Shown here piece by piece: positions 3,629 to 23,338 of a stretch of 24,000 bases of DNA (its first letter is position 1; the number at the start of each line of letters is the position of its first letter). The DNA lies in contig JAFDVJ010000060.1 of assembly GCA_018269075.1 (NCBI GenBank), positions 11,079-35,078 of the forward strand, read 5' to 3'. The notes under the pieces are model-generated. The model ran no database searches. It was not told the DNA's origin and worked only from the letters and a program-made list of their open reading frames with translations. The stretch comes from Acidobacteriota bacterium (GTDB taxonomy: Bacteria; Acidobacteriota; Blastocatellia; Pyrinomonadales; Pyrinomonadaceae). The position numbers and the translations under genes were made by a program.

Positions 3629-3697
3629 ATTTCAAAGGCCAAAGCCCAAATGTACTTTTGACAACCGGATCCGGCCCGAACGTTTTCGTCCCTCGAC

Positions 3698-3734
3698 GAA
3701 AAATCCGAAATCCGAAATCCGAAATCCGAAATCG
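3698..3734 (+). repeat. Tandem heptamer array (GAAATCC)n, left arm of a 35-nt perfect inverted repeat
   Basis: The sequence is gaaaaatcc gaaatcc gaaatcc gaaatcc gaaatcg, ending 2 nt before ATG 3737. Its reverse complement cgatttcggatttcggatttcggatttcggatttttc matches 4300-4334 over 35 nt (GATTTCGGATTTCGGATTTCGGATTTCGGATTTTT). Confidence 0.9.
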
Positions 3735-3736
3735 CC

Positions 3737-4300
3737 ATGTCCTGGATCAAAACGATACCCTTTGACGAAGCCGACGAAAAACTGCGCCGGGCGCTCGAAG
3801 CGCAGCGCGCGCTCTACCCGAAGGAATACGGAACGCCGCAGCCGCCGATTCTCGGCGACGAATCGATCGTTTCGACGCACACGCTGATTCCCGACGCGCT
3901 CTATCACGCGTTCGCGACGTTCGGCGTCCTGACGGCGCCCGATCTGCCGCTCGACCGGCGGCAGCAGGAGATGATCGCGACGATGGTCTCGGTCACCAAC
4001 GACTGCTTTTACTGACTGGTCTCGCACGCGGAGTTTCTGCGTCTCGTGACCTTCGACGACGAGCTCGTCGAAAAGCTCAAAACCGATTACAGACAAGCGC
4101 CGATCTCGGAGGCCGAACGCGTGATGTGCGACTATGTCGTGCAGCTGACGAAGGACGCGACCAGGATCACGCCCGATTATCACGTCAAAATGCGCGCCCA
4201 CGGGTTCGACGACACGGCGATTCTCCAGATCACGCTGATCGCCGCCTGGTTCAATTACATCAACCGGGTCGCGGACGCGCTCGGAGTGGGACGGGGGTGA
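3737..4300 (+). CDS. AhpD-like / carboxymuconolactone decarboxylase-family peroxidase-related protein, 187 aa, with TGA 4013-4015 read as selenocysteine (C90-x-x-U93)
   Basis: Track ORFs 3737..4015 and 4046..4300 share a frame (offset 309 = 3x103). TGA 4013-4015 is the only stop between them. The junction reads [20 protein letters not shown], matching the family motif N-x-C-x-Y-C-x-x-x-H with TGA at the second Cys. The N-terminus [21 protein letters not shown] resembles the peroxidase-related subfamily. A hairpin follows the TGA (next feature). The alternative reading is a nonsense pseudogene. Confidence 0.7.
4018..4051 (+). promoter_or_regulatory. Candidate bacterial SECIS hairpin
   Basis: Folded by hand. 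Pairs are 4018-4021 with 4048-4051 (GGUC/GACC), a U.U mismatch, 4023-4024 with 4045-4046, a 1x2 internal loop, and 4026-4031 with 4037-4042 (ACGCGG/CUGCGU, one G.U). The apical loop is AGUUU at 4032-4036. The stem starts 3 nt after the UGA and the loop lies 17-21 nt downstream. No energy calculation or covariance model was run. Confidence 0.45.
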
Positions 4301-4335
4301 TTTCGGATTTCGGATTTCGGATTTCGGATTTTTTT
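4299..4335 (+). repeat. Tandem heptamer array (GATTTCG)n, right arm of the 35-nt perfect inverted repeat, followed by a T-run
   Basis: The sequence is t-gatttcg gatttcg gatttcg gatttcg gattttt-tt-attt. It begins inside stop codon TGA 4298-4300 and ends in TTTTTTTATTT, 9 nt before hutI ATG 4345. Confidence 0.9.
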
Positions 4336-4344
4336 ATTTAGGCG

Positions 4345-5610
4345 ATGAAAGCTGATCTGGTAATTTATAATGCGCGGGTCGTTGGCGGCGCGGCTGACGG
4401 CGGGCCGAAAAAGGGTGCGGCGCTGGCCGGGCTGACGATCGTCGGGGACGGGGCAGTCTCGGTCGTCGGCGGGCGGATCGCGGCGGTCGGGCCGTCGGCG
4501 GAGATTTTGGAGCAATACGCGGCCGAAAACGCGATCGACGCGGGCGGTCGGGTCGTCGGACCGGGGTTCGTCGAATGCCACACGCACGTCGTCTTCGCCG
4601 GCGACCGGCTGAACGAATTCGAGCTCAAGATCCGGGGCGCGGATTATCTCGAAATTCTCAAGGCGGGCGGCGGGATTCTCTCGACCGTCCGGCAGACGCG
4701 GGCGGCTTCGGTCGACGAACTGGTCGCCGAGAGCCGCCGGCGGCTCGACAAAATGCTCGCGCTCGGCGTGACGACGGCCGAAGTCAAGACCGGCTACGGG
4801 CTCGACACCGAAACCGAATTGAAGATGCTGCGGGCGATCTTCGCGCTCGACGCGGCGCACGCCGTCGATCTCGTCCCGACGTTTCTGCCGGCCCACGCCG
4901 TCCCGCCGGAATTCCGGGAAAACCCGGACGCTTACGTCGATCTGATCTGCCGCGAGATGCTGCCGCGGGCGCTCGAAGAATTTCGAAATTCGAGGCTGAA
5001 TTCGCCGATTTTCGTCGACGTTTTCTGCGAGCGCGGCGCCTTCGATCTCGAACAGTCGCGCCGGGTTCTGGAAACCGCCAAAGCTCTCGGTTTCGGGATC
5101 AAGGCGCACGTCGACGAGTTTACGAATCTCGGCGGCGCGCGGATGGCGATCGGGCTCGGCGCGACGTCGGTCGATCACCTCGACGCGATTTCCGACGAGG
5201 AAATTGCGCTGCTCGCCGCCTCCGGCACGGTCGGCGTCGTCACGCCGACGGTCAATTTCAATTTCGGCTCGAAGGAATTCGCCGACGCGCGCCGGCTGAT
5301 CAACGCGGGCTGCGCCGTCGCACTCTCGACCGACTACAACCCGGGCAGCGCGCCGTGTCCGAGCCTGCCGAACGCGATGGCGATCGCCTGCCGCTATCAA
5401 AAGCTGCTGCCGGCCGAGGCCTTCAACGCCGCGACGATCAACGCCGCGCACGCCGTCGGTCTCGGCGCTCAAATCGGTTCGCTCGATGCCGGGAAACGGG
5501 CCGACATTTTGATCTTCGACACGAAAGATTATCGCGAGATCGCCTACGAATTCGGCGGCAACCCGGTCGCCGCAACAGTCAAAAACGGAATAATGGTAAA
5601 CCGTTCGTAA
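4345..5610 (+). CDS. hutI: Imidazolonepropionase (amidohydrolase superfamily), 421 aa
   Basis: Motifs seen: GFVECHTHVVFAGDR (HxH metal site), EVKTGYGL, KAHVDEF, and LSTDYNPGS with a C-terminal SLDAGKRADILIFD. Length and order are typical of HutI. Antisense ORF 4255..5472(-) is a shadow. Confidence 0.92.
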   Translation: MKADLVIYNARVVGGAADGGPKKGAALAGLTIVGDGAVSVVGGRIAAVGPSAEILEQYAAENAIDAGGRVVGPGFVECHTHVVFAGDRLNEFELKIRGADYLEILKAGGGILSTVRQTRAASVDELVAESRRRLDKMLALGVTTAEVKTGYGLDTETELKMLRAIFALDAAHAVDLVPTFLPAHAVPPEFRENPDAYVDLICREMLPRALEEFRNSRLNSPIFVDVFCERGAFDLEQSRRVLETAKALGFGIKAHVDEFTNLGGARMAIGLGATSVDHLDAISDEEIALLAASGTVGVVTPTVNFNFGSKEFADARRLINAGCAVALSTDYNPGSAPCPSLPNAMAIACRYQKLLPAEAFNAATINAAHAVGLGAQIGSLDAGKRADILIFDTKDYREIAYEFGGNPVAATVKNGIMVNRS

Positions 5611-7326: not shown

Positions 7327-7875
7327 GTGCAGACATCAGCGGTTACGCTAAGCGGTGAAAAAATTCAGGTCGGCAATTGCGTCGCGGTTTTGCGGCAGGG
7401 CGTCGAGCTTCTCGAAAAGCTCGACGACGGGCTTTACGCGAAGGCCGGCGGGCCCGAAAATTCGTCGGTCGGCGGTCATTTTCGCCATAATCTCGATTTC
7501 GTGACAAATTTTCTCGACGGTCTGGAAAAAGGGAAGATCGATTACGCCGCGCGCGAAAGAGATCCGCGCGTCGAAAACGACCGGGCTTGCGCCGCCGCGC
7601 GATTCCGGGCGGCGATCGACAGGCTCGAAAACCTCGGGGAAACGGTTTTCGACGCGAAAATCGTCGTCCGGTCGGAGACGAATCCGGCTCTCTGGTGCGA
7701 TTCGTCGGCCGCGCGGGAGCTCGAATTTTTGCAGAGCCACACGATTCATCATTACGCGCTGATCCGTTTCAAACTGGCGGCCGAGGGCTTTCAAACCCCG
7801 CCGGAATTCGGCGTCGCGCCTTCAACTCTCGAATATTGGAAAGGCCTTGAGGACAGGGCCGGGGAGCAACGATGA
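7327..7875 (+). CDS. DinB-like (DinB_2/YfiT-type four-helix-bundle) protein, 182 aa
   Basis: GTG start at 7327 with GGAG (7314-7317) 9 nt upstream. His-rich motifs GGHFRHNLDF and QSHTIHHYALI fit the DinB/YfiT metal-binding His triad spacing. The stop overlaps the next start as ATGA (7872-7875). Confidence 0.6.
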   Translation: MQTSAVTLSGEKIQVGNCVAVLRQGVELLEKLDDGLYAKAGGPENSSVGGHFRHNLDFVTNFLDGLEKGKIDYAARERDPRVENDRACAAARFRAAIDRLENLGETVFDAKIVVRSETNPALWCDSSAARELEFLQSHTIHHYALIRFKLAAEGFQTPPEFGVAPSTLEYWKGLEDRAGEQR

Positions 7876-8279
7876 ATATCTTGAGTTGGATTTTGCGGAT
7901 CGTCGCGGCGATCATTCTGCTGCAGACGCTGTTTTTCAAATTTACGGGCGCCGAGGAATCGAAGTATATTTTTTCGACGCTGATGGGCGACAACGAAGCG
8001 GTCGGCCGGATCGGTTCCGGCGTCGTCGAGCTGCTCGCGGTCGTGCTGTTGTTCGTTCCGGGGACGGCGTGGCTCGGGGCCGCGCTCGCGCTCGGGACGA
8101 TGGCCGGCGCGATTTTCAGTCATCTGACGAAGCTCGGCGTCGTCGTCAAGGACGACGGCGGGCTGTTGTTCGGGCTCGCGATCACGGTTTTCGCGGCGAG
8201 CTTCGCGGTGCTGCTGATTCACCGCCGCGAAGTGCCGGTCGTCGGGCCGCTGCTTTTCGGACAGGAAACCGGGCAATGA
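7872..8279 (+). CDS. DoxX-like small integral membrane protein, 135 aa
   Basis: It has four hydrophobic helices. The N-terminus MNILSWILRIVAAIILLQTLFFKFTGAEES is typical of DoxX-like proteins. GGGGAG (7861-7866) lies 5 nt upstream of the ATG. ATGA overlaps occur at both ends (7872-7875 and 8276-8279). Confidence 0.7.
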   Translation: MNILSWILRIVAAIILLQTLFFKFTGAEESKYIFSTLMGDNEAVGRIGSGVVELLAVVLLFVPGTAWLGAALALGTMAGAIFSHLTKLGVVVKDDGGLLFGLAITVFAASFAVLLIHRREVPVVGPLLFGQETGQ

Positions 8280-10078
8280 GGATTGTGGGGCAAATCAGGG
8301 ACAAACGCCGGTGGCTCGCCGCGGCCGGCGTTTGTCTTTTGGCGGGCCTCGCGGTTTATTCGGTCTTCGAATTTCTGACGCCGGCCGATTATGAAACTCT
8401 GAAGGCCGGCCTGCTCGCGCCCGAAAGCCTCGGCGTCGAACGGTTTTCGGGACTCGCGGTCTTTTTCATTCTCGCGGCGGCGACGCTCGTCAGCGAGGAT
8501 CTGACCTGCATCGCGGCGGGCGTGCTGGCGGCGCAGGGGAAAATCGGGCTCTCGCTCGCGATCTCGAGCTGCGCCTTCGGGATCTTCGTCGGCGACATAC
8601 TGCTTTTTCTGGCCGGCCGCTTTTTCGGGCGCAGGGCATTAAATAACAGGTTTTTCAATTATTTCGTCAGCGAAAGCGCGTTCGAGCGGAGCTCGCGCTG
8701 GCTCGAACGGCAGGGAATGAAGGCGGTTTTCATCAGCCGTTTCGTGTTCGGCCTGCGGCTCCCGCTCTATTTCGCGGCCGGCGTGCTGAAAACTTCGTTC
8801 CGGCGCTTTACGCTCTATTTCTCGGCGGCGGTCGCGATCTGGACGCCGATTCTCGTCGGCGCGACCTCGCTGCTCGGCGCCGAGGTCGTCAAAAATTCGC
8901 TTTTCAACCGGAGTCTCTGGCTCGGCATCCTCGTTTTCGCGGCGGCGGCGTTTTTCGGCGTGCGGCTCGTCCAGCAGCTGCTGACGTGGAAGGGCCGGCG
9001 GATCCTGCTCGGCCGGATCAAGCGGCGGTTCATCTGGGAATTCTGGTCGATCCGCGTCTTTTATCTGCCGGTCGTCGTGTACGTGCTGTGGCTGATGGTC
9101 CGCCGCCGGAGCCTGACGGTTTTTTCGTGCGCCAATCCGGCGATTCCGGCGAGCGGGTTCGCCGGCGAGTCGAAGGCCGCGATTCTCGACGGACTCGGCC
9201 GGTCGGCGGCGGCGCAGCCGTTTTCACTGAAATACCTGCTGCTGCGGGACGATCAGGCGGCCGCCGAACGATTGCAAGCGGCGACGGATTTTATGAATGC
9301 CGGCGGTCTTTCGTTTCCGGTCGTCGTCAAGCCGGATGTCGGCGAACGCGGGACCGGCGTCGTGATCGCGAAAGATCCGGCGAAGCTCGAAAAGGCGGTC
9401 GCCGACGCGAAAGGCGATCTGATCCTGCAGGAATTCGCGCCCGGCGTCGAAACGAGCGTGTTTTACTGCCGTTACCCGGACGATGAACGGGGCCGCATCT
9501 TCTCGATCACCGAAAAACGCTTCCCGACGGTCGCCGGCGACGGGCGGCGGACGCTCGAAGAGCTGATCCTCGCCGATCCGCGGGCCGTCTGTCTCGCCGC
9601 GAAATATCTCGAACGCAGCGCCGACCGGCTCGAAACCGTGCCCGGGGCGGGCGAAATCGTCCCGATCGTCGACATCGGCACGCATTCGCGCGGTGCGATT
9701 TTTCGCGACGGCGGCTGGATGAAAACGCCGGCGCTCGAGGAGACGATCGACCGGATCTGCCGCGGTTTCGAAGGGTTTTATTTCGGCCGGTTCGACATCC
9801 GCGCCGGCTCGTTCGAGGAATTCGCCGCCGGGGAAAATTTCCGGATCGTCGAGCTCAACGGCGTGACCAGCGAATCGACCAACATCTACGACCCGCGCTA
9901 TTCGCTGTTCGCGGCGTACCGCATTTTGTTCAGCCAATGGCGGATCGCCTTCGAGATCGGCGCCGCCAACCGCCGCCGCGGCGTCCGGCCGGCGTCGCTC
10001 GCGGAACTGATCGGCCTCGCGCTCGGACGGCCCGCCCGGCGGCCGGAAACCGTTCTTCAGGATGCCGAATGTGCGTAA
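8276..10078 (+). CDS. Fusion protein, 600 aa: N-terminal DedA/VTT (SNARE-associated) membrane domain plus C-terminal ATP-grasp ligase domain
   Basis: Track ORF 7847..10078. The real start is taken as ATG 8276 (MRIVGQIRDKRRWLAAAGVCLL), because the upstream part overlaps DoxX out of frame and is Arg-rich. The DedA-like core spans about aa 57-235 (LVSEDLTCIAAGVLAAQG, GDILLFLAGRFFGRR, FISRFVFGLRLPLYFAAGVLK). An extra helix follows (WEFWSIRVFYLPVVVYVLWLM). The ATP-grasp-like part spans about aa 285-565 (FPVVVKPDVGERGTGV, LILQEFAPG, FYFGRFDIRA, FRIVELNGVTSESTNIYDP). Confidence 0.75.
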   Translation: MRIVGQIRDKRRWLAAAGVCLLAGLAVYSVFEFLTPADYETLKAGLLAPESLGVERFSGLAVFFILAAATLVSEDLTCIAAGVLAAQGKIGLSLAISSCAFGIFVGDILLFLAGRFFGRRALNNRFFNYFVSESAFERSSRWLERQGMKAVFISRFVFGLRLPLYFAAGVLKTSFRRFTLYFSAAVAIWTPILVGATSLLGAEVVKNSLFNRSLWLGILVFAAAAFFGVRLVQQLLTWKGRRILLGRIKRRFIWEFWSIRVFYLPVVVYVLWLMVRRRSLTVFSCANPAIPASGFAGESKAAILDGLGRSAAAQPFSLKYLLLRDDQAAAERLQAATDFMNAGGLSFPVVVKPDVGERGTGVVIAKDPAKLEKAVADAKGDLILQEFAPGVETSVFYCRYPDDERGRIFSITEKRFPTVAGDGRRTLEELILADPRAVCLAAKYLERSADRLETVPGAGEIVPIVDIGTHSRGAIFRDGGWMKTPALEETIDRICRGFEGFYFGRFDIRAGSFEEFAAGENFRIVELNGVTSESTNIYDPRYSLFAAYRILFSQWRIAFEIGAANRRRGVRPASLAELIGLALGRPARRPETVLQDAECA

Positions 10079-11761: not shown

Positions 11762-11785
11762 CGAATCGGGTGGGAGGTGAAAAGG

Positions 11786-13084
11786 ATGATTTGCCCGAAA
11801 TGCAGCGGTTTGAACGACGATACGAATATTTTCTGTATCATCTGCGGCGAAACATTTCATTCTTCCACAAATCTCCCGTCGACGGTGATGGGCCCGCAAA
11901 ATCCGCTGGAAACGATAATGCCGACGCAGATTTTTCAGCCGCCGCCCGCCGCCGGCGAAGAGTTTTTATCGACGCCGACCGTCTTCGGCGTCCCGCCGAA
12001 TTATAACCAGTCGCAGGCCGGCTTCAACCAACCCCCGCCGGGGTTCGATCAGTCGCAGGCGGGATTCAACCAGTCGCAGGCGAATTTCAATCAGTCGCAG
12101 GCGAATTTCAATCAGTCGCAGGCCGGCTTCAATCAGTCGCAGGCCGGCTTTAATCCGTCATTCGTCGGGTTCAACCCGGTGATTCCGCAGGTCCAGCCGG
12201 AGCCGCCGAAGAGCCGCTGGGTTTTGTGGCTCGGCCTCGGCGGCGTCTTCGTGATCCTGCTCGGCTGCGGGATCGCGGCGGCCGTGTTTTTCCTCTACCG
12301 GCCGACCGGCCCGGCCGAGGTTCTGCCCGATCATCTCGGTTTGTTTTTCCAGAACGGCGATAAGACGGCGATCACCGAGCTCGCCAAAAAGGATTATGCG
12401 AACGCGCTCGACGGCAAGGACAAGCTGCTCAAGGACGAATCGCTGCCCGAGGTCGAGAGCCGGCCGAACCTGATCCTCTATTCCGACGGCAAGGACATCC
12501 CGGTCGGCGATCTCAAGCTCGTCCAGCTCGACACGATCAAGAACGACGGCAAGCTCAAACAGGTCGAGTTCAAGGTGACGCCGGTCGATGGCAAACCCGA
12601 GATGAAGCGGCTCTGGCTGACGGAAAATCTGGCCAAAGGGAAATACGCCTTCGCGCTTTTCGACGGGTTTCTCGACGAGGGAAAACATAAGCTCTGGGCT
12701 TTTCAGGTGAAGAATTCCGACCGGACCGACAATGCCAGTCTGCTCAAGGAGCTAACGGTCGCGCCGAAATCGAAGGACGAGAAGAAGGAAGAAAATTCGA
12801 ATACCGCGACGCCGTCGCCGAGCGCGACCGCGACGCCGAAACCGACGGTCGCCCCGCCGGTCGGGGCGCGGACGGCCTACGCCGGCACCAACAACGTGCT
12901 GGTGCGCTCCGCCCCGAGTCTCGACGCGGCCAAAGTGAACGCTCTGAGGAACGGTCAAAAGGTTTACATTCTCGGTTTTTCGGACAATTACGATTACTGG
13001 AACGGTCTGGAAGGAAACTGGGCCCACGTGCAGACCGAAGGCGGGCAGCGCGGGTGGGTTTTCTCGCCGCTCCTGAGATATTGA
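11786..13084 (+). CDS. Bitopic membrane protein, about 432 aa: N-terminal zinc ribbon, N/Q-rich heptad repeats, one TM helix, extracytoplasmic domain, PT-rich linker, C-terminal SH3b domain
   Basis: ATG 11786 lies 8 nt after GGGAGG (11772-11777). The track used GTG 11777. CPKC..x..CIIC forms a zinc ribbon. Eight NQSQAGF-type repeats follow, then TM helix WVLWLGLGGVFVILLGCGIAAAVFFLY. The linker is ATPSPSATATPKPTVAPP. The C-terminus YAGTNNVLVRSAPSLDAAKVNALRNGQKVYILG...WAHVQTEGGQRGWVFSPLL is bacterial SH3-like. Confidence 0.75.
   Translation: MICPKCSGLNDDTNIFCIICGETFHSSTNLPSTVMGPQNPLETIMPTQIFQPPPAAGEEFLSTPTVFGVPPNYNQSQAGFNQPPPGFDQSQAGFNQSQANFNQSQANFNQSQAGFNQSQAGFNPSFVGFNPVIPQVQPEPPKSRWVLWLGLGGVFVILLGCGIAAAVFFLYRPTGPAEVLPDHLGLFFQNGDKTAITELAKKDYANALDGKDKLLKDESLPEVESRPNLILYSDGKDIPVGDLKLVQLDTIKNDGKLKQVEFKVTPVDGKPEMKRLWLTENLAKGKYAFALFDGFLDEGKHKLWAFQVKNSDRTDNASLLKELTVAPKSKDEKKEENSNTATPSPSATATPKPTVAPPVGARTAYAGTNNVLVRSAPSLDAAKVNALRNGQKVYILGFSDNYDYWNGLEGNWAHVQTEGGQRGWVFSPLLRY
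12005..12172 (+). repeat. Eight tandem 21-bp in-frame repeats encoding NQSQAGF-type heptads
   Basis: Units start at 12005, 12026, 12047, 12068, 12089, 12110, 12131 and 12152. They encode NQSQAGF, NQPPPGF, DQSQAGF, NQSQANF, NQSQANF, NQSQAGF, NQSQAGF, NPSFVGF. The central units are near-identical at the DNA level (cagtcgcaggc[cg]...ttcaat). Confidence 0.9.
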
Positions 13085-15853: not shown

Positions 15854-18800
15854 TCAAAAATCGGTAAAGTATTTTTCGGTGATGACCGGCGAACCGGCGT
15901 TTTTCGCGTTTTGATCGGCCAGTTTGAACTGTAAGGCTTCGAGCCGTCGAGCGGATTCGGCCGCCTTTTCGGTCGATCCGGCGAGGCTGCCGAAAGCCTT
16001 TTCGTATTCGATAGCCGCCGCCAGGTCGCCGGTCTGCTCGGCCGCCGGCGACAGCGCTTCGATTATCCGGCGAACCGCTTCCGCCTGGGTGCGGCGGTTC
16101 CGGCGGTCGAGAGTTTCGAATTCGGAATCCCGGAAGACGGCGGCCGAAGTTCCGGCGTTTTTCAGGAGCCCGAATTTTCCGGCGAGCGCGAGGGCCGTTT
16201 CCGTTTTTCCCGCCTCCAGCCGGTTTTCGATCGCCAGCCCGACCGGCGATTTTTCACGAAAGCCGAAAATTTGGGTCAGCTGAAAGGATTGGCCGGCGAC
16301 CTTCATCAAATCGTCGAACGCCGCGTCGCCGAGGCCGGCCTCGCGTTCGAAAAGCGCCCGCAGAAAAACCAGCTCGCCCGAGTAGCCGTTTTCACCGAGC
16401 ATCGCGGCCGCCCCCTGCGGGTCGCCGTTCCGGGCTGTTAAAAAGGCTTTCAGCGCCGTTTCCATCTCGGTCTCGCGGCTCGCCGAAAACGGGTTCTCGG
16501 CCGCGAATTTTTCACGGAGCCCGGGATTTCGGCCGCAGATTTCGGCCAGCACGAGCAGGCTTTGCCAGCGATACCGGCGTTCGATCCGGAGATCGGCGGA
16601 AATTTCGACGAGCCGCGCGGCCGCTTCGGCGGGGCCGTTGAGTTTTTCCTGCAGGCGGGCCTTCTCGATCCGGTTACCGATGTCGGCCGGCGCGGTTTCG
16701 AAAAGCCTTTCGCGAAACGCGGCGGCCTCGGCATAAAGACCGAATTCCGCCGCCATTTCGGCCGCGACCCGCAGCGCCGCGGTCGTTTGCAGGTCGTTTT
16801 GCGGTTCGACGGGCAGATTTTCGCGGTTCGCGAATTTTTGGATCAGCGGCATCGCATCGAGCTCCGAGCGCATTTCCGGTTCCGAAAAGGCAGTCATTAT
16901 CTTCAGCAGACTGAGACCGGCGGCCGTCTCGCCCTTTTCGAATTCGATCCGCGCGAGCCCCGCAAAATCTTCGGTTTCGAACTGTTCGAGCGCGATCCGG
17001 CGGGCGTAAAAAGCCTCGCGAAGCGGCGGAAGCAGATCGGCCCGGCCGGTTTCCTCGAGCACCGCGGCGGCGGCGTTCAGCCGGTCGAGGTCGGGAAGCG
17101 GAGCCTTAGAGGATGTCGGATGAATCTCGATCCCGGTAAATTGCAGCAAATCCCGACCGACCGGGACGTTTTGCCGGATTTTGACCCGGAGAGCGGCCAG
17201 TCTGAGCCAGACCGGCCGGGCGTAATGGCCCTTCAGCGAATCTTCGATTTCGGCGATCAGTTTCGCGGCCGCCGGCCAGTTCCGGTTTTCGAGCAGAAAG
17301 TCGAGATAAGCCTGCCGGCGGCGCAGCTTTTCGTTCTCGGGCTCCGGCGACTCGAAATCTTTTTCCGAGTCGTAAAGCAGCTCGGCGTCGGCGGCGTTCG
17401 AAGTCGCTTCCAGCTGCAGAACATAGTCGTAATCGTGTTCGTAGCTGTCGAAGCCGGAAGCGCTGCGGATCCAGATCTCGTAAAATTTCCCGCGGTCGGC
17501 GGGCCCGATCAGAGTTTCTTCGATCAATATTTGCGGGAGCCGCGAATTTTTGCCGGATTCGAGACAGAGCGCCAGAAAATAGGCCGTTTTCCGGCTTTCG
17601 GAATCGAAGGTTTTCGCGAGATCGCGAATCAGCTCTTTGAGGTTTGCGGGGAATTGATCGTCGTCGTCGGGGTTTTCTTTCAAATGATTGAGAACGAACG
17701 GTTTGAGGTCGTCGCGGGCCTGCTCCGACTGGCCGAAGTCGGCCATCGTCCGCAGATACAGGACGGCGTCGTCGACGGTCGGATCTTCGTTCTCGACGAT
17801 CCGGCTCCAGGTCTCGATGGCCTTTTGCCGTTCGCCCTTTTGAAAATAGGCGGCCCCGACGTAGGGCAGAAACGAACGATCGTCCGGCGCGAGCTGCCCG
17901 GCGATCCCGAAATGTTCGAGGGCGCGGTCGAAATCCTTTTGTTCGAGATAGTAATAACCGAGGCTGAACTGCCGGGCGGCGTCCTGCGGACGGCTTTCGA
18001 TGCCCGCCGGGAGGTATAATTCGGCCTGCTCGCGGTGCGGGCCGGCGGCGAGCCATTTTCCGTAAAGTCCGGCCGCCGCGAACCACTCGGCGCCCGCGAG
18101 CGCCGGTTTTTTGTCGGGATCGAGGGCGATCAGCCCGCCGATCGGCGCGAGACCGAGCGCGTTCCGGTAAAATTCGTTTCTATCCGGCGCGTCCGGTTTC
18201 AATTGCGATTCGATTTGGGCGGTTCGCGAAGTCTTCCAGCCGTCCGGTAAGGTTGAATTCCGGACGGCCTCGGCGGCAGCTTCCTTTTCGTTTTTCGAAA
18301 GCAGGAAATTGATCAGCCGGAGCTGGTGAACCGTCGGGCCGTCGATCAGTTCGTCGAGTTTTTGACGGTCGTCGCGGTAGAGGATTTCAAGGTAGCGGCC
18401 GGTCAGCTCGTCGTCGCCCGACTGCCGCGCGAAAACAATGCCGAGGGCCTTTTTTTCTTTTTCGGGATCGCCGGCCGACCGGGCGTTTTCCGCGTAGAGC
18501 CGGACCTGTTCGAGGGGCCGCGATTCGAGTTTCGGATCGAGCAGATAGAGAACCTCGCGAAAACGCCCGCGGTTTTGATAAAACGCCAGCAGGGGCTGAA
18601 GGTTGACGGCGGCGCGCCCCTCGTTGGGCGAGTTTTGGTAAGCGGCGATCAGGTTTTTTTCCAGCAGATCGTCGAAGCCGCAGCCGGCGGCCAGATTCTG
18701 GAGCAGCGAAAGCCGTCCGGAATCGGCGTCGGCCGTGGTTTGAAGCTCGGAATCGATGAGGCTTCGAAGATAGATGATTTCGGCGCCGCTCGCCCGGGTT

Positions 18801-21800
18801 TTGATCTCGCCGGCGAGCGCGCCGACGATCGCTTTATCGAGAACCGAAAGGCTCCGGCGCGCGCGGCCGGCGACGACCGAGTCGGGATCGTCGAGCGCCG
18901 CCGAATATTTTTCGCGGAGCGCCAGCAGCTTCGGGACGATCGAATCGAGCGGGTCGCGCCGGTGGACGGTTTTGACGAAGTCCTCAACGTCGGCCGGCCT
19001 CAGTTCCTGCCGGAACGGCGCGTTCAACAGATCGTCGAAGGCCGCCAGAAAGGTTTCGGGCGCTTGTTCCGAATCCCCGGCCGACAGCTGCCGGGCCGCG
19101 TCGAACCGGTCGGTTTCCGGGGCCGGCGGCGGAATCTGCTCGGCCGGCAGCTTGTTTTTTTCGGCCGCGGCCTCGGCGAACCGGCCGAGTTTTTCGAGCA
19201 GGGCGATTTTCTGCCGGCGGTATTTGGCGTCCTCGTTCGAGAGCTCAAGCATTTTATCGATGGTCGTCAGAGCGGCTTCGTAATTTTGCATAACGGTTTG
19301 AAGGCCGGCCAGCTCCTCGTAGAGCGCGAGGTCTTCCGGCTGGTTGAAAATGGCGATCCGGTAATTTTCGAGCGCGTTCGGATAGTCTTTCTCGGCTTCG
19401 TAGAGCCGGCCCAGAACGAGATTCCAGCGGTAATTCTTGAAGGACTCGGCGGCCAGCTTGCGGTAATAATCGATCATTTTCGACGCGCCGCCGAACCGTT
19501 TGACGTAGGCGAAGGCGCGGTCGAGTTTTTCTTCGTCGTCGGGGTCGCGGTTGATGATCTCGACGTATTGCTCGGCGGCCGAGTCGTAATCCTTCAAGCG
19601 GGTAAAGGCGTCGATCATTTTTTCGCGCAGATCGGCGGTGATCCAGTTTAATTCACGCGGTTCGAGCCCTTGTTTTTTGAGGGCTTCGAGATTCCGGTCG
19701 AGCGCCTGCCGGAGCGCGTCCGGTCGGGCCGTCCGGACATATAGGCCGGTCAATTCCGAAAAAACCTCGTCGTCGGACGGGTTTTCGTCCTGCAGCCGGA
19801 GGAGAATTTTTTCGGCCGGGGCCGTCCGGTTGTCGGAAAGCAGGCGCTGGACGAGCTTTCGGCGGAGGCTGTAGAGATACTCGCCGCGGGCGCGCCCGAG
19901 CGCGGCCTCGAGGACGGCGATCGAGCGCCGGCGATTTCCGAGATCCCAGAAAAAGGCTTCGGTTTCCTTGATCACGCCGTAATTGGCCGGAAATCGGGCG
20001 ATCAGCTCGTCGAGCACGCGGGCGGCCTCGGCGGGCTGGTAATTTTCGCGAAAGCGGTCGGCGAGCTGGAGCCGGTAAATGATCGAATCGTGCGGGGTGA
20101 CGGAAATCCGGATCAAACGTCCGAGAACCGCGCGGATCGCCGCCGATTCGTCGACATCGCGGAAAAACTGTTTCGTTTCGAGCAGATTATCGACCGATTT
20201 TTCGCCGGTAGATTGCTCAATCAGCAGCTCGACGGCTTTCTGTTTTTGCCCGGCAAGGAAAAAGACGTCCGCGTAATTGAAAACCAGCCGAAACGGCTGC
20301 GCGGTCGCCTTTCGCCGGGTTTCGAACGCGGCGTCGATCTCCGCCGCGAGGCCGGGTTTCCCGAAAAGCACGCGCAGCCGTTGTTTGGCGGCCGACCAAT
20401 CGGCCGCGCCGTCGTCGTCGGAAAGCGCCCTGAGATATTCGCCGAGCGCTTCGGAGCGTTTGTTTTGGGCTTCGAGGATCGCGCCGGCCTGAAAGGCGTA
20501 GAGATTTTCGCGACCGGTTTTCCGGCGCAGATCTTCGATCGTCCGAAGCGCTTTGTCGAACTGAAAATAATCCCAGTAAACGGTCGCCGTCGTCAGATAT
20601 GAATCGTTTTCGCCGGCCGCCTGCGCGGGCAGTTTGTCCCAGTTTTCGGCGGCTTTGGCGAAATCGCCGAGCTCGGCCCGGAGCTCGCCCGCCCGCGTGC
20701 CGTAGCGCCCGTCGGACGGGAAGTCGGCGGCCTGCCGCTCGGCGAAATCGGCCGATTCGAGCAGCAGGCTCCGGTTCGTCTGGCCGAAGGAGCGGGCGAT
20801 CGCCAGAAAATTTTCCGAGATTTCGGGATCGTTCGGATAAAGCCGGTTCAGATCGCGATAGAAAAGGACCGATTTTTCGAAATCCGAAAGCCGCGCCGAA
20901 GCGTCGGCCCGGAACAGTTTATAGGTGAGCGCGCCGATTTCGTCGCCGTCGCTGCGCTCTTCGGCAATCTTCAGACAGTCTTCGAGCTGTCCGGTTCTCG
21001 CCAATTCGTTTAGAAACAGTCCGCGGATTTCGGGCGATTCGAAATAGTATTCGGCCGCCAATTGACGCCATTCGACGGTCATTTTGTGCTGCTCGTAATA
21101 TTGCAGAAGCCCTTTGACGAACACGATGTTGTGCGGAAAACGTAGGTGCGCCAGGCTGTAAAGCCCGAGAAACAGCCGCCCGTCGAAACTGTCGGGGCTT
21201 TTGAGCTCGCGACCGTCGATGAACTCATTGAGAAATGAGCGGGTGCCGGCGTCGTCGAAGCTCGCGACGACCGACCGCGAAAAAACGTCGAATTCATCCG
21301 ACCGGCGGTTGCGGATCAGCCAGCGCGCGAAACGGTCCGACCAGGTTTTCTGCGGGAACTGTTGAAGCGCTTTCCGGTAATATTCGAGCTGTTTTTCGAT
21401 CAGGTTGGTTTGTCCGAGCCAACCGAGCATTTCGACGTAGAGCCGCGATTCGTCGGGGTATTTTTCGATTTCGCCGGCGTAAAGGTCGAGAATCTCGCGG
21501 GTTTTGTTTTCGCGGGCGAGCGAGCCGACAAAGCGCGTAAGGATGTTCGAATAGGAATAATCGGCCGGATGGGACGTCAGATAATTTCGGTAACTGGCTG
21601 CCGGAGCTTCATAATAAGACCCGCGTTTCGGTTTATCGAAATTCGAAACGCCCGTGTTCGAGGCCGCCGGAAATTTGACGACCTGCGGCTTTTCGGCCGA
21701 CGGTTCCGGCGACTGATCGTTTGCGGCGTTTTGATAAACGGGAAACCGCGGCGCGTCGGAACGGCCGAGCCGGTCGAGCAGGTCGCGGTAAACGGCGCGT

Positions 21801-23338
21801 TCGCGGTCGTATTTATTGACCGCGATATAGGCGTCGGCGAGCTTGACGGCGGCGTCCGCGTAATTTTCGAAACGGGCGTAGTTTTGTTCATATTCGGCCA
21901 GCGTTTGTTCGGCGATTTCCGGGTTATCTGACAAAGTGTAGAGCCGGACGATGTCGAGATACATCTGCGCGAGTTCGGGCCGCCCGGGGTATTCCTGCCG
22001 GAAAGTCAGGAAAAGCCGGTAGGCGGTCGCCCGGTTGAAAAGCCGGACGGCGGCCTGTTTTTTTTCGTCGAAACGGCCGGCAATGCCGGAATCGGAAAAA
22101 ATCAGCGAGATGAGACCGGTCGTGACGCCGGGATGGATGTCGGTTTTGGCGACCGTCTCAAAAAAATCGAGATCGCCGTCGGTCAGCGGCAGGCGGCGGT
22201 CGGCCGAGTCCGACAGGAGCTCGAAAAGCTGGTAGATGACTTTCGGACGGATTTCCGCGTCGCCTGCGAACCGCCGGTCGGCGGCGACCGTGTAAAGAAA
22301 CCGCGAGGCCGCCGCGCCCTCGCCGGCCTCGATCAGGAACTGCGAGATCGTCAGCAGCTGGTCGGGAGCCCATTCGACTTTTTTCTGCCGCCGCGCCGTT
22401 TCGAGCGTGCTGATCAGAGGGCCGATCTCATTGCCCTCGTAATTTTCGAGATGGATCAGCCGGACGGCGGTTTGGAAATCGGTCGGGTCGAGCCGGAATT
22501 GCTTGCGAAGCCCGGATTGATAAACGCGGTACGCGTCGTTTTCATCGAGGAACCGGTAAAATTTATCGCTTTCATCGGCGGGCCAGGACGGATCGAAGGC
22601 GTTTTCGTAAACCGCGACGGCCTCGGTGGTTTTCTTTTCGGCGAGCAGAACGGCCAAGCGTTTTTCGAGGATCGGGCCGCCCGCGTTGGGGAAATTCGCT
22701 TCGGCTTCGGTCAGCAGCCGCGCCGCCTCGGCGAATTCTTTTTCTTCGATCAGCCGGTCGACGTACTGCAGGAAAACCGGCAGCGATTCCGGAGCGGCGG
22801 CCAGTACGCGACGCGCATAATCCGGGGACAAATACTGTTTGAGATCGTGTTTTCCGGCGAAATTGATGAGGTTCGCGAAATTCTCGGCCCGTTTTTCGGG
22901 CTCTTCGTCGAGGAGTCGTTCGAGCACGGCGGCCTCTTTTTCGAAAGCCGCGCGGCGGTCGTAAAAACCGGCGAGAACCCGCAGGTCGACGGGTTCGATC
23001 GCCTGCAGCTCCTTTTCCGCATCGTCGAACCGCCCCAGTTTTTCGTCGAGCCCGGCCAGTTTGAGGAGGATTTCCGGATCGTCCGGATACTGCTCCAGTA
23101 CCGCGGCCAGCCGGCTCCGCGCGTCGGCGGTCGGAAACGGCACGATCGCGGTCGCGCCGAAAAAATCGGTTCGCGCGAACAGCGCCTGCTCGACGGCCGC
23201 GTTTTTCGGATCGATCGGAATTTCGGCCGGTTTGTCCGAAGAGAAGCCGAAATACAGCGAAATGATCAGGATCGAAAGATAGACCGCGGACTGGAGGCCG
23301 ACGGCGATTCCGGATTTTGTAAGCGGTGGTAAAGGCAT
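15854..23338 (-). CDS. Giant TPR / helical-repeat protein with one N-terminal TM helix, 2494 aa
   Basis: A single uninterrupted 7.5-kb ORF. The N-terminus is MPLPPLTKSGIAVGLQSAVYLSILIISLYFGF. The remainder is Ala/Leu/Glu/Tyr-rich with many TPR-like 34-residue patterns (for example AELYLPAGIESRPQDAARQFSLGYYYLEQKDFDRALEHFGIAGQLAPDD and WNLVLGRLYEAEKDYPNALENYRIAIFNQPED). It starts 5 nt after the upstream gene's stop. Confidence 0.85.
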   Translation of the reverse strand: MPLPPLTKSGIAVGLQSAVYLSILIISLYFGFSSDKPAEIPIDPKNAAVEQALFARTDFFGATAIVPFPTADARSRLAAVLEQYPDDPEILLKLAGLDEKLGRFDDAEKELQAIEPVDLRVLAGFYDRRAAFEKEAAVLERLLDEEPEKRAENFANLINFAGKHDLKQYLSPDYARRVLAAAPESLPVFLQYVDRLIEEKEFAEAARLLTEAEANFPNAGGPILEKRLAVLLAEKKTTEAVAVYENAFDPSWPADESDKFYRFLDENDAYRVYQSGLRKQFRLDPTDFQTAVRLIHLENYEGNEIGPLISTLETARRQKKVEWAPDQLLTISQFLIEAGEGAAASRFLYTVAADRRFAGDAEIRPKVIYQLFELLSDSADRRLPLTDGDLDFFETVAKTDIHPGVTTGLISLIFSDSGIAGRFDEKKQAAVRLFNRATAYRLFLTFRQEYPGRPELAQMYLDIVRLYTLSDNPEIAEQTLAEYEQNYARFENYADAAVKLADAYIAVNKYDRERAVYRDLLDRLGRSDAPRFPVYQNAANDQSPEPSAEKPQVVKFPAASNTGVSNFDKPKRGSYYEAPAASYRNYLTSHPADYSYSNILTRFVGSLARENKTREILDLYAGEIEKYPDESRLYVEMLGWLGQTNLIEKQLEYYRKALQQFPQKTWSDRFARWLIRNRRSDEFDVFSRSVVASFDDAGTRSFLNEFIDGRELKSPDSFDGRLFLGLYSLAHLRFPHNIVFVKGLLQYYEQHKMTVEWRQLAAEYYFESPEIRGLFLNELARTGQLEDCLKIAEERSDGDEIGALTYKLFRADASARLSDFEKSVLFYRDLNRLYPNDPEISENFLAIARSFGQTNRSLLLESADFAERQAADFPSDGRYGTRAGELRAELGDFAKAAENWDKLPAQAAGENDSYLTTATVYWDYFQFDKALRTIEDLRRKTGRENLYAFQAGAILEAQNKRSEALGEYLRALSDDDGAADWSAAKQRLRVLFGKPGLAAEIDAAFETRRKATAQPFRLVFNYADVFFLAGQKQKAVELLIEQSTGEKSVDNLLETKQFFRDVDESAAIRAVLGRLIRISVTPHDSIIYRLQLADRFRENYQPAEAARVLDELIARFPANYGVIKETEAFFWDLGNRRRSIAVLEAALGRARGEYLYSLRRKLVQRLLSDNRTAPAEKILLRLQDENPSDDEVFSELTGLYVRTARPDALRQALDRNLEALKKQGLEPRELNWITADLREKMIDAFTRLKDYDSAAEQYVEIINRDPDDEEKLDRAFAYVKRFGGASKMIDYYRKLAAESFKNYRWNLVLGRLYEAEKDYPNALENYRIAIFNQPEDLALYEELAGLQTVMQNYEAALTTIDKMLELSNEDAKYRRQKIALLEKLGRFAEAAAEKNKLPAEQIPPPAPETDRFDAARQLSAGDSEQAPETFLAAFDDLLNAPFRQELRPADVEDFVKTVHRRDPLDSIVPKLLALREKYSAALDDPDSVVAGRARRSLSVLDKAIVGALAGEIKTRASGAEIIYLRSLIDSELQTTADADSGRLSLLQNLAAGCGFDDLLEKNLIAAYQNSPNEGRAAVNLQPLLAFYQNRGRFREVLYLLDPKLESRPLEQVRLYAENARSAGDPEKEKKALGIVFARQSGDDELTGRYLEILYRDDRQKLDELIDGPTVHQLRLINFLLSKNEKEAAAEAVRNSTLPDGWKTSRTAQIESQLKPDAPDRNEFYRNALGLAPIGGLIALDPDKKPALAGAEWFAAAGLYGKWLAAGPHREQAELYLPAGIESRPQDAARQFSLGYYYLEQKDFDRALEHFGIAGQLAPDDRSFLPYVGAAYFQKGERQKAIETWSRIVENEDPTVDDAVLYLRTMADFGQSEQARDDLKPFVLNHLKENPDDDDQFPANLKELIRDLAKTFDSESRKTAYFLALCLESGKNSRLPQILIEETLIGPADRGKFYEIWIRSASGFDSYEHDYDYVLQLEATSNAADAELLYDSEKDFESPEPENEKLRRRQAYLDFLLENRNWPAAAKLIAEIEDSLKGHYARPVWLRLAALRVKIRQNVPVGRDLLQFTGIEIHPTSSKAPLPDLDRLNAAAAVLEETGRADLLPPLREAFYARRIALEQFETEDFAGLARIEFEKGETAAGLSLLKIMTAFSEPEMRSELDAMPLIQKFANRENLPVEPQNDLQTTAALRVAAEMAAEFGLYAEAAAFRERLFETAPADIGNRIEKARLQEKLNGPAEAAARLVEISADLRIERRYRWQSLLVLAEICGRNPGLREKFAAENPFSASRETEMETALKAFLTARNGDPQGAAAMLGENGYSGELVFLRALFEREAGLGDAAFDDLMKVAGQSFQLTQIFGFREKSPVGLAIENRLEAGKTETALALAGKFGLLKNAGTSAAVFRDSEFETLDRRNRRTQAEAVRRIIEALSPAAEQTGDLAAAIEYEKAFGSLAGSTEKAAESARRLEALQFKLADQNAKNAGSPVITEKYFTDF

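Follow-up and report, generated by a model that had tools for sequence, protein, structure and literature searches.

An in-frame UGA in an AhpD-like gene of Acidobacteriota that probably encodes selenocysteine

The stretch of DNA analysed here, called the window throughout, consists of 24,000 nucleotides (nt) of contig JAFDVJ010000060.1 (positions 11,079 to 35,078, forward strand; assembly GCA_018269075.1) from a member of the Pyrinomonadaceae, phylum Acidobacteriota, with a G+C content of 61%. An AhpD-like gene at positions 3737-4300 carries a TGA codon within its frame, and the question raised by this locus is whether the DNA holds two gene fragments or a single gene in which UGA is read as selenocysteine (Sec). 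A first-pass annotation made from the sequence alone had proposed one selenoenzyme of 187 amino acids (aa) and not fragments or a pseudogene, a proposal that is now supported by intact orthologues, by the occurrence of Cys or TGA at residue 93 and by constraint at the RNA level. We consider it very probable that 3737-4300 encodes one 187-residue AhpD-like thiol/selenol oxidoreductase (TIGR01926, CMD fold) whose UGA is decoded co-translationally as Sec.

Reading frame and protein family

Translation of the window gives a single plus-strand frame of 188 codons from 3737 to 4300, in which the TGA at 4013-4015 is the sole internal stop. As first described, the two open reading frames (ORFs) called here, 3737..4015 (plus strand, 92 aa, ATG start) and 4046..4300 (plus strand, 84 aa, GTG start), lie in one frame with only this TGA between them. 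The motif across the codon reads N-D-C-F-Y-[TGA]-L-V-S-H, in the wider context VTNDCFY*LVSHAEF, and the codons around the site are GAC at 4001, TGC at 4004 (Cys90), TTT, TAC, the TGA itself and CAC at 4025 (His97). Residue conservation was counted over the best 120 of 973 homologues in the protein database, and the features of the coding region are as follows.

3737..4300, plus strand: complete ORF of the predicted AhpD-like / peroxidase-related selenoprotein, 187 residues with Sec93 counted, terminated by a separate TGA at 4298-4300
3968..3970, plus strand: GAG codon of Glu78, predicted proton-relay residue, kept in 120/120 homologues
4004..4006, plus strand: TGC codon of Cys90, predicted resolving Cys of C-x-x-U, Cys in 113/120 homologues
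4013..4015, plus strand: in-frame UGA, predicted to be read as Sec93, the putative catalytic selenol; TGA in relatives, aligned to the second Cys of CxxC
4025..4027, plus strand: CAC codon of His97, predicted catalytic His of C-x-x-U-x-x-x-H, His in 119/120 homologues

Profile matches of the 187-aa product were computed with Cys in place of the internal stop. The product passes the curated cutoff of the NCBIfam family TIGR01926 "peroxidase-related enzyme" (105.6 bits against 81.8) and that of Pfam CMD PF02627 (37.8 bits against 23, E = 2e-9), in agreement with the initial assignment to the CMD/AhpD family with its N-x-C-x-Y-C-x-x-x-H motif. It is a member neither of canonical AhpD, TIGR00777 (18.3 bits, cutoff 191.95), nor of NF041238, the AhpD_rel_CFYUT selenoprotein (59.6 bits, cutoff 175). 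The latter family, "hypothetical protein 1" of the Sargasso Sea, resembles the window protein in its C-F-Y-U motif and AhpD-related domain but differs in being a 357-residue model with an extra N-terminal domain; the match to it is weak, query residues 53-184 covering only profile positions 198-333. Full-length homologues are about 188 aa long and 65-81% identical to the window protein.

Because the TIGR01926 cutoff is passed, the window gene belongs to a known selenoprotein family. The Sargasso Sea study of 2005 reported 27 AhpD-like COG2128 CxxU selenoprotein sequences with a predicted Sec insertion sequence (SECIS) element (PMC1088965), and a figure legend of the same paper highlights conserved apical-loop guanosines. 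AhpD-like selenoproteins were found in genomes in 2006 (PMC1794560), the family serves as a browsing example in the BSepDB paper, and a 2026 review table lists AhpD-like CxxU proteins under TIGR01926 (PMC13188914); the remark in the first-pass annotation that the family is not new therefore holds. The Sargasso AhpD-like proteins and the window protein share the hidden Markov model family (COG2128/TIGR01926), the C-x-x-U motif with Sec for the second Cys, and a SECIS with an apical-loop G after the UGA. The former come from marine plankton, whereas the clade of the window comes from soil Acidobacteriota, Gemmatimonadota and Latescibacterota and has a near-invariant SECIS core of 17 nt.

The closest solved relatives, with E values from 4e-22 to 8e-16, are 2pfx (3.9e-22), 3c1l, 2oyo and 2prr, all "uncharacterized peroxidase-related proteins", and the Deinococcus AhpD 6k40. 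All five are Cys forms, unlike the Sec form of the window. The N-x-C-x-Y-C-x-x-x-H motif aligns column for column with 2pfx, 6k40 and 3c1l over residues ~60-183, and in these three printed alignments the second Cys of CxxC falls on the UGA, position 93. The predicted CMD fold and the aligned Cys are fixed by these matches to solved structures.

AhpD of Mycobacterium tuberculosis (TIGR00777), an alkylhydroperoxidase and AhpC reductase, likewise has the CMD fold and E...C-x-x-C-x-x-x-H at identical spacing. Since the weak TIGR00777 alignment (query 74-112 to profile 114-152) has an offset of 40, E78/C90/U93/H97 correspond to positions 118/130/133/137, which we take to be the Glu/Cys/Cys/His catalytic set of M. 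tuberculosis AhpD, E78 standing for Glu118. In that enzyme the second Cys is the nucleophile and the first is the resolving residue; by analogy, the window protein likely follows the same chemistry, with a nucleophilic second Cys/Sec and a resolving first Cys. It differs from M. tuberculosis AhpD in scoring below the TIGR00777 cutoff, in having Sec and not Cys, and in its surroundings, as neither ahpC nor another redox partner gene was found beside the AhpD-like gene, whose neighbours are a Na/Ca exchanger and hutI/hutH.

Asn88 is kept in 120/120 and Tyr92 in 119/120 of the best homologues, and position 93 is Cys or TGA in 117/120. The two cysteines of the motif behave differently. Cys90 is kept in all 64 TGA forms, given as "W" in the protein database, and is Thr in seven Cys forms among the same 120; the resulting T-x-x-C motif is present in 7/53 Cys-form proteins and 9/11 Cys-form DNA loci. 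As the first Cys is often lost in Cys forms, the position aligned with Sec is the indispensable one. This pattern points to a one-Cys mechanism for part of the Cys forms, and to a Cys-Sec pair that is obligatory where Sec is used. Sequences with Thr for the first Cys (N-R-T-Y-Y-C) occur among the Cys-form metagenome loci L086-L098 and, in the database, as P0088 and six other proteins.

The UGA codon in relatives and the stem-loop behind it

A scan of species-representative genomes (GTDB species genomes) recovered 80 loci, and all 80 have TGA at the site codon and no other stop within the gene. They span Acidobacteriota, Gemmatimonadota and one Latescibacterota, the acidobacteriotal loci belonging to Pyrinomonadaceae, other Blastocatellia, Chloracidobacterium, Terriglobia and Thermoanaerobaculia, and the cultured isolate Pyrinomonas methylaliphatogenes K22 is among the carriers; the best genome match is only 80% identical. 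A metagenome scan seeded with a Cys-form protein gave 68/80 loci with TGA, 11 with TGC and one unresolved partial. At position 93, the best 120 homologues have "W" in 64, Cys in 53 and another residue in three. The "W" entries sit on contigs of about 1 kb, and where the DNA behind two of them was checked (P0001 and P0002; three contigs) the codon was TGA each time, so the translation of these contigs had used a code with TGA as Trp. Presumably, then, 64/120 of the best homologues (P0001-P0120) carry a false Trp at the Sec position, brought in by that code. The alignment of Cys with residue 93, which the first-pass annotation had singled out for checking, is borne out by the 53/120 Cys homologues, the 11 TGC loci and the Cys forms in the Protein Data Bank.

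In bacterial SECIS elements, the apical-loop G usually stands about 16-37 nt after the UGA. The minimum free energy (MFE) structure of 4010-4070 pairs 4018-4021 with 4048-4051, 4023-4024 with 4045-4046 and 4026-4032 with 4036-4042, which gives 4+2+7 = 13 base pairs (bp), and its apical loop is GUU at 4033-4035. Counted from the A of the UGA, the loop G stands 17 nt downstream, in keeping with the distance of 17-21 nt noted at first. Two elements are distinguished.

4026..4042, plus strand: SECIS core, the predicted SelB-binding minihelix; 7-bp stem ACGCGGA/UCUGCGU with loop GUU, 98.8% paired
4018..4051, plus strand: extended hairpin of the window MFE, also formed when the whole transcript is folded; the lower stem is peculiar to the window

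The region from +12 to +29 after the codon (CAC GCA GAG TTT CTG CGT, codons H-A-E-F-L-R) is nearly fixed in 132 distinct TGA-form sequences. The third-position entropies of these six stem-loop codons are 0.00, 0.30, 0.00, 0.22, 0.00 and 0.31 bit in the TGA forms, against 0.8-1.9 bit in the flanks (seven codons before the UGA, three after it and twelve past the element) and 0.68-1.24 bit at the same third positions of the Cys forms (n=11). The frozen codons GCA, TTT and CGT of the TGA forms end in A or T; the Cys forms mostly encode Phe by TTC and Arg by CGC, and usually have Thr (ACC/ACG) in place of the Ala. The 7-bp hairpin is present in the MFE structure of 111/132 TGA forms and is complete in 0/11 Cys forms, one of which has 6/7 pairs. 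When 124 distinct sequences are aligned without gaps, 98.8% of the cells of the stem ACGCAGA/UCUGCGU are paired and its inner 5 bp are broken in no sequence; the changes seen are A-U to G-U at one pair, a variant carried by the window itself, and rare losses of the two terminal pairs. By this comparison of codons and folds, the RNA stem-loop is under selection only where the codon is TGA.

The first-pass annotation had described a 12-bp interrupted hairpin at 4018-4051. Such a hairpin exists, with 13 bp, and its 7-bp apical stem and GUU loop are conserved, but the lower stem is not a feature of the family: its register differs among clades and RNAalifold keeps the apical helix only. The lower stem was rejected as a conserved feature as its extension energy, computed with the apical stem constrained, equals that of shuffled flanks. 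In E. coli fdhF, only the upper minihelix, at the right distance from the UGA, is needed for SelB binding, and conservation of the apical stem only would fit that model by analogy. The window element and the fdhF SECIS are both short stem-loops directly 3' of the UGA with G/U in an apical loop at the canonical distance; that of the window differs in sequence, has a 3-nt GUU loop and shows no evident bulged U.

A side observation concerns the sequence of the element. CACGCAGAGTTTCTGCGTCG, the SECIS core with its flanks (+12..+31 after the TGA), is near-identical in three phyla, although protein identity is just 65-80%. The Sec form may have spread horizontally, or SelB may be very narrow in its specificity; either could account for this near-identity.

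Decoding of the UGA

In the mechanism that we propose, the 17-nt stem-loop at 4026-4042, which begins 10 nt past the UGA, would recruit SelB with Sec-tRNA(Sec) to a ribosome paused at the UGA; Sec93 would be inserted, and translation would run on to the true stop at 4298-4300. The residue would replace the nucleophilic second Cys of the AhpD motif C-x-x-C-x-x-x-H. Its selenolate, served by His97 and Glu78, would attack peroxide or an oxidised partner thiol, Cys90 would resolve the intermediate as an intramolecular selenenylsulfide, and a cellular thiol reductant would then reduce the selenenylsulfide. The frequent loss of the first Cys in Cys forms and its retention in all 64 TGA forms fit these roles of the two residues. 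SelB dependence, selenium incorporation, the substrate and the catalytic cycle are the parts of this scheme that we infer.

Several results weigh against it. Taken alone, the window hairpin is within chance (z = -1.52; 17/200 shuffles fold at least as well), so that the stem-loop stands above chance because of the comparative evidence and not because of the single sequence. With the apical stem fixed in the fold, the lower stem is, across the family, no more stable than shuffled flanks would be (mean z +0.15; z of -1.56 for the window). No two-sided (compensatory) changes were found in the conserved stem among the 124 distinct sequences, and the argument rests therefore on conservation at synonymous sites and not on covariation. 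Rfam gave no match for the whole window at the gathering threshold, nor for 3950-4120 at E<=10. With regard to the decoding genes, ARAGORN found no tRNA-Sec in the window or in 60 related loci (about ±10 kb around the gene), and neither the window nor 1.2 Mb of related loci (±10 kb flanks) gave a tblastn hit with E. coli SelA, SelB or SelD as query.

A second gene indirectly supports Sec decoding in this lineage. Five Blastocatellia metagenome-assembled genomes (MAGs) have a DUF3179 gene (PF11376, 1.5e-69) with an in-frame TGA at A-T-Y-[TGA]-T-L-C-H-T-G (U-x-x-C), followed by an invariant hairpin of its own, CACACCGGUCUGGUGUG. The TGA lies at L010 4790 (gene ~4283-5530), L014 4786, L024 3735, L044 11207 and L056 11182; all five MAGs also carry the TGA form of the AhpD-like gene, from which the DUF3179 gene lies about 5 kb upstream in the first three and directly downstream in L044 and L056. 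This pairing in Blastocatellia may point to a shared redox function. DUF3179 (UxxC/T) is itself a listed selenoprotein family (PMC13188914), and Acidobacteria were recorded with selenoproteins in 2006 (PMC1794560). In DNA so rich in GC, the raw scan for in-frame TGA codons gave a great deal of noise; the AhpD-like and DUF3179 genes alone recurred across loci with a plausible protein, and no second candidate was found in the window.

The alternative that survives best, though we regard it as improbable, is read-through without Sec. A tRNA(Sec)-like tRNA(Cys), or an acidobacterial allo-tRNA acting as an opal suppressor, would place Cys or another residue at position 93, possibly guided by the hairpin. 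Such Cys tRNAs and suppressor allo-tRNAs have been described, the allo-tRNAs in Acidobacteria (PMC5389517), and the search for Sec machinery, confined to the window and the flanks of related loci, leaves room for them. However, the same paper reports selC*/selB* from Deltaproteobacteria, Firmicutes, Nitrospirae and Thermodesulfobacteria and not from Acidobacteria, and AhpD-like proteins are already catalogued as selenoproteins. A strictly conserved hairpin at SelB-type spacing, together with a DUF3179 TGA gene in the lineage, fits ordinary Sec decoding, and a Cys-inserting lineage would have no evident reason to keep TGA over TGC in 80/80 species.

Still less credible is a split or decaying gene, in which the stop at 4015 would end a 92-aa fragment and 4046-4300 would be either a small ORF of its own or DNA that has lost its function. 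This is the treatment that the K22 orthologue receives from gene callers and GenBank/RefSeq (93 aa, WP_041976721.1), and the ORF list of the window shows two ORFs. Yet the TGA forms are intact in about 150 independent sequences from three phyla, with no further stops or frameshifts, and identity to the window among them is 70% after the UGA against 65% before it, so that the orthologues are not decayed on either side of the stop, as a pseudogene would require. The half after the UGA is conserved at least as well as the upstream half, which contradicts a pseudogene, a sequencing error and a truncated product alike. Moreover, His97 and the conserved residues between 4016 and 4045 fall outside both called ORFs, and the Cys-form homologues are contiguous single proteins.

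Two further readings can practically be dismissed: that sequencing or assembly turned a true TGC/TGT into TGA, and that the organism uses a code (table 4 or 25) in which TGA has a sense meaning. Many database entries do give W at the codon, some pipelines having chosen code 4/25 for short contigs, but TGA is present in all the independent assemblies from ENA, Logan, JGI and NCBI and in a cultured isolate, and a reassigned code is contradicted within the window by TGA as the ordinary stop of 7/14 main genes, the AhpD-like gene included, and by TGG for every Trp.

Flanking arrays, neighbouring genes and annotation

On either side of the AhpD-like ORF stands a perfect 33-nt heptamer array, each the exact reverse complement of the other.

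3701..3733, plus strand: upstream heptamer array, (AAATCCG) x4.7, ending 3 nt before the ATG; 100% matches in TRF
4299..4331, plus strand: downstream heptamer array, (GATTTCG) x4.7, overlapping the stop codon and followed by a T-run

When 3690-4345 is folded, these arrays pair with each other in a helix of about 39 bp and enclose the entire ORF (z of the complete fold about -6), and arrays of the AAATCYR type recur directly 5' of the ATG of the AhpD-like gene in several relatives. Period-7 arrays are the commonest class of tandem repeat in 1.17 Mb of related genome loci, with 106 arrays in 45/81 loci; they have 3-5 copies, and their units vary by site (Acidobacteriota and Gemmatimonadota loci L004-L083). 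Among neighbouring array pairs, 15/35 are inverted copies and none are direct, compared with 2.2% for unrelated pairs, and the usual spacer between paired arrays is 8-78 nt; inverted pairs at this distance would give long periodic hairpins. Examples of period-7 arrays are listed below.

L006, 9919-9994: period-7 array
L027, 2033-2134: period-7 array
L029, 10569-10724: period-7 array
L043, 8078-8149: period-7 array
L057, 4650-4710: period-7 array
L071, 5988-6062: period-7 array
Window, 2338-2354: period-7 array

Heptameric intergenic repeats are known in Beggiatoaceae and cyanobacteria (PMC4679880, PMC4692102), and those of Acidobacteriota and Gemmatimonadota resemble them; a literature search on heptamer repeats found no description for Acidobacteria. 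The arrays that bracket the AhpD-like gene could conceivably form a functional long-range RNA helix, or mark the ends of a cassette, sequestering the start and stop codons and making expression of the selenoprotein conditional, although we hold this to be unlikely. If true, they would be an instance of an undescribed "periodic hairpin" class of inverted heptamer arrays in intergenic regions of Acidobacteriota and Gemmatimonadota.

The window shares its gene order with a Pyrinomonadaceae MAG locus (L017), at 61-86% protein identity: amino-acid permease, Na/Ca exchanger, AhpD-like gene, hutI-like amidohydrolase, hutH, DinB-like gene and VTT/RimK gene. By this synteny, too, the source is very probably a Pyrinomonadaceae-like acidobacterium. 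The last of these is a 743-aa plus-strand ORF (7847-10078) with a VTT domain and a RimK-like ATP-grasp, and its start overlaps the DinB-like ORF (7327-7875, plus strand). Elsewhere in the window, a repeat with a period of 21 nt (7 codons) occupies 12005-12174 of the plus strand within an SH3-domain ORF (11777-13084), and a TPR-rich ORF of 2494 aa lies on the minus strand at 15854-23338.

Concerning annotation, the first-pass expectation that gene callers mis-annotate such genes is illustrated by the orthologue of the cultured type strain K22 (L031 10001-10567), which is deposited as a 93-aa "carboxymuconolactone decarboxylase family protein" (CDM65940.1, WP_041976721.1, UniRef A0A0B6X0L0). The soil clade of AhpD-like selenoproteins is less well recorded. 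The practical value of the result is in annotation, and what selenoprotein biology already knows is unchanged. Correction of these entries adds to the catalogue a widespread selenoenzyme of dominant soil phyla, carried by all 80 soil genomes of the species-representative set, and implies a need for selenium in those phyla. The near-invariant SECIS core could serve as a probe for Sec genes, and for lineages that decode Sec, in metagenomes from soil.

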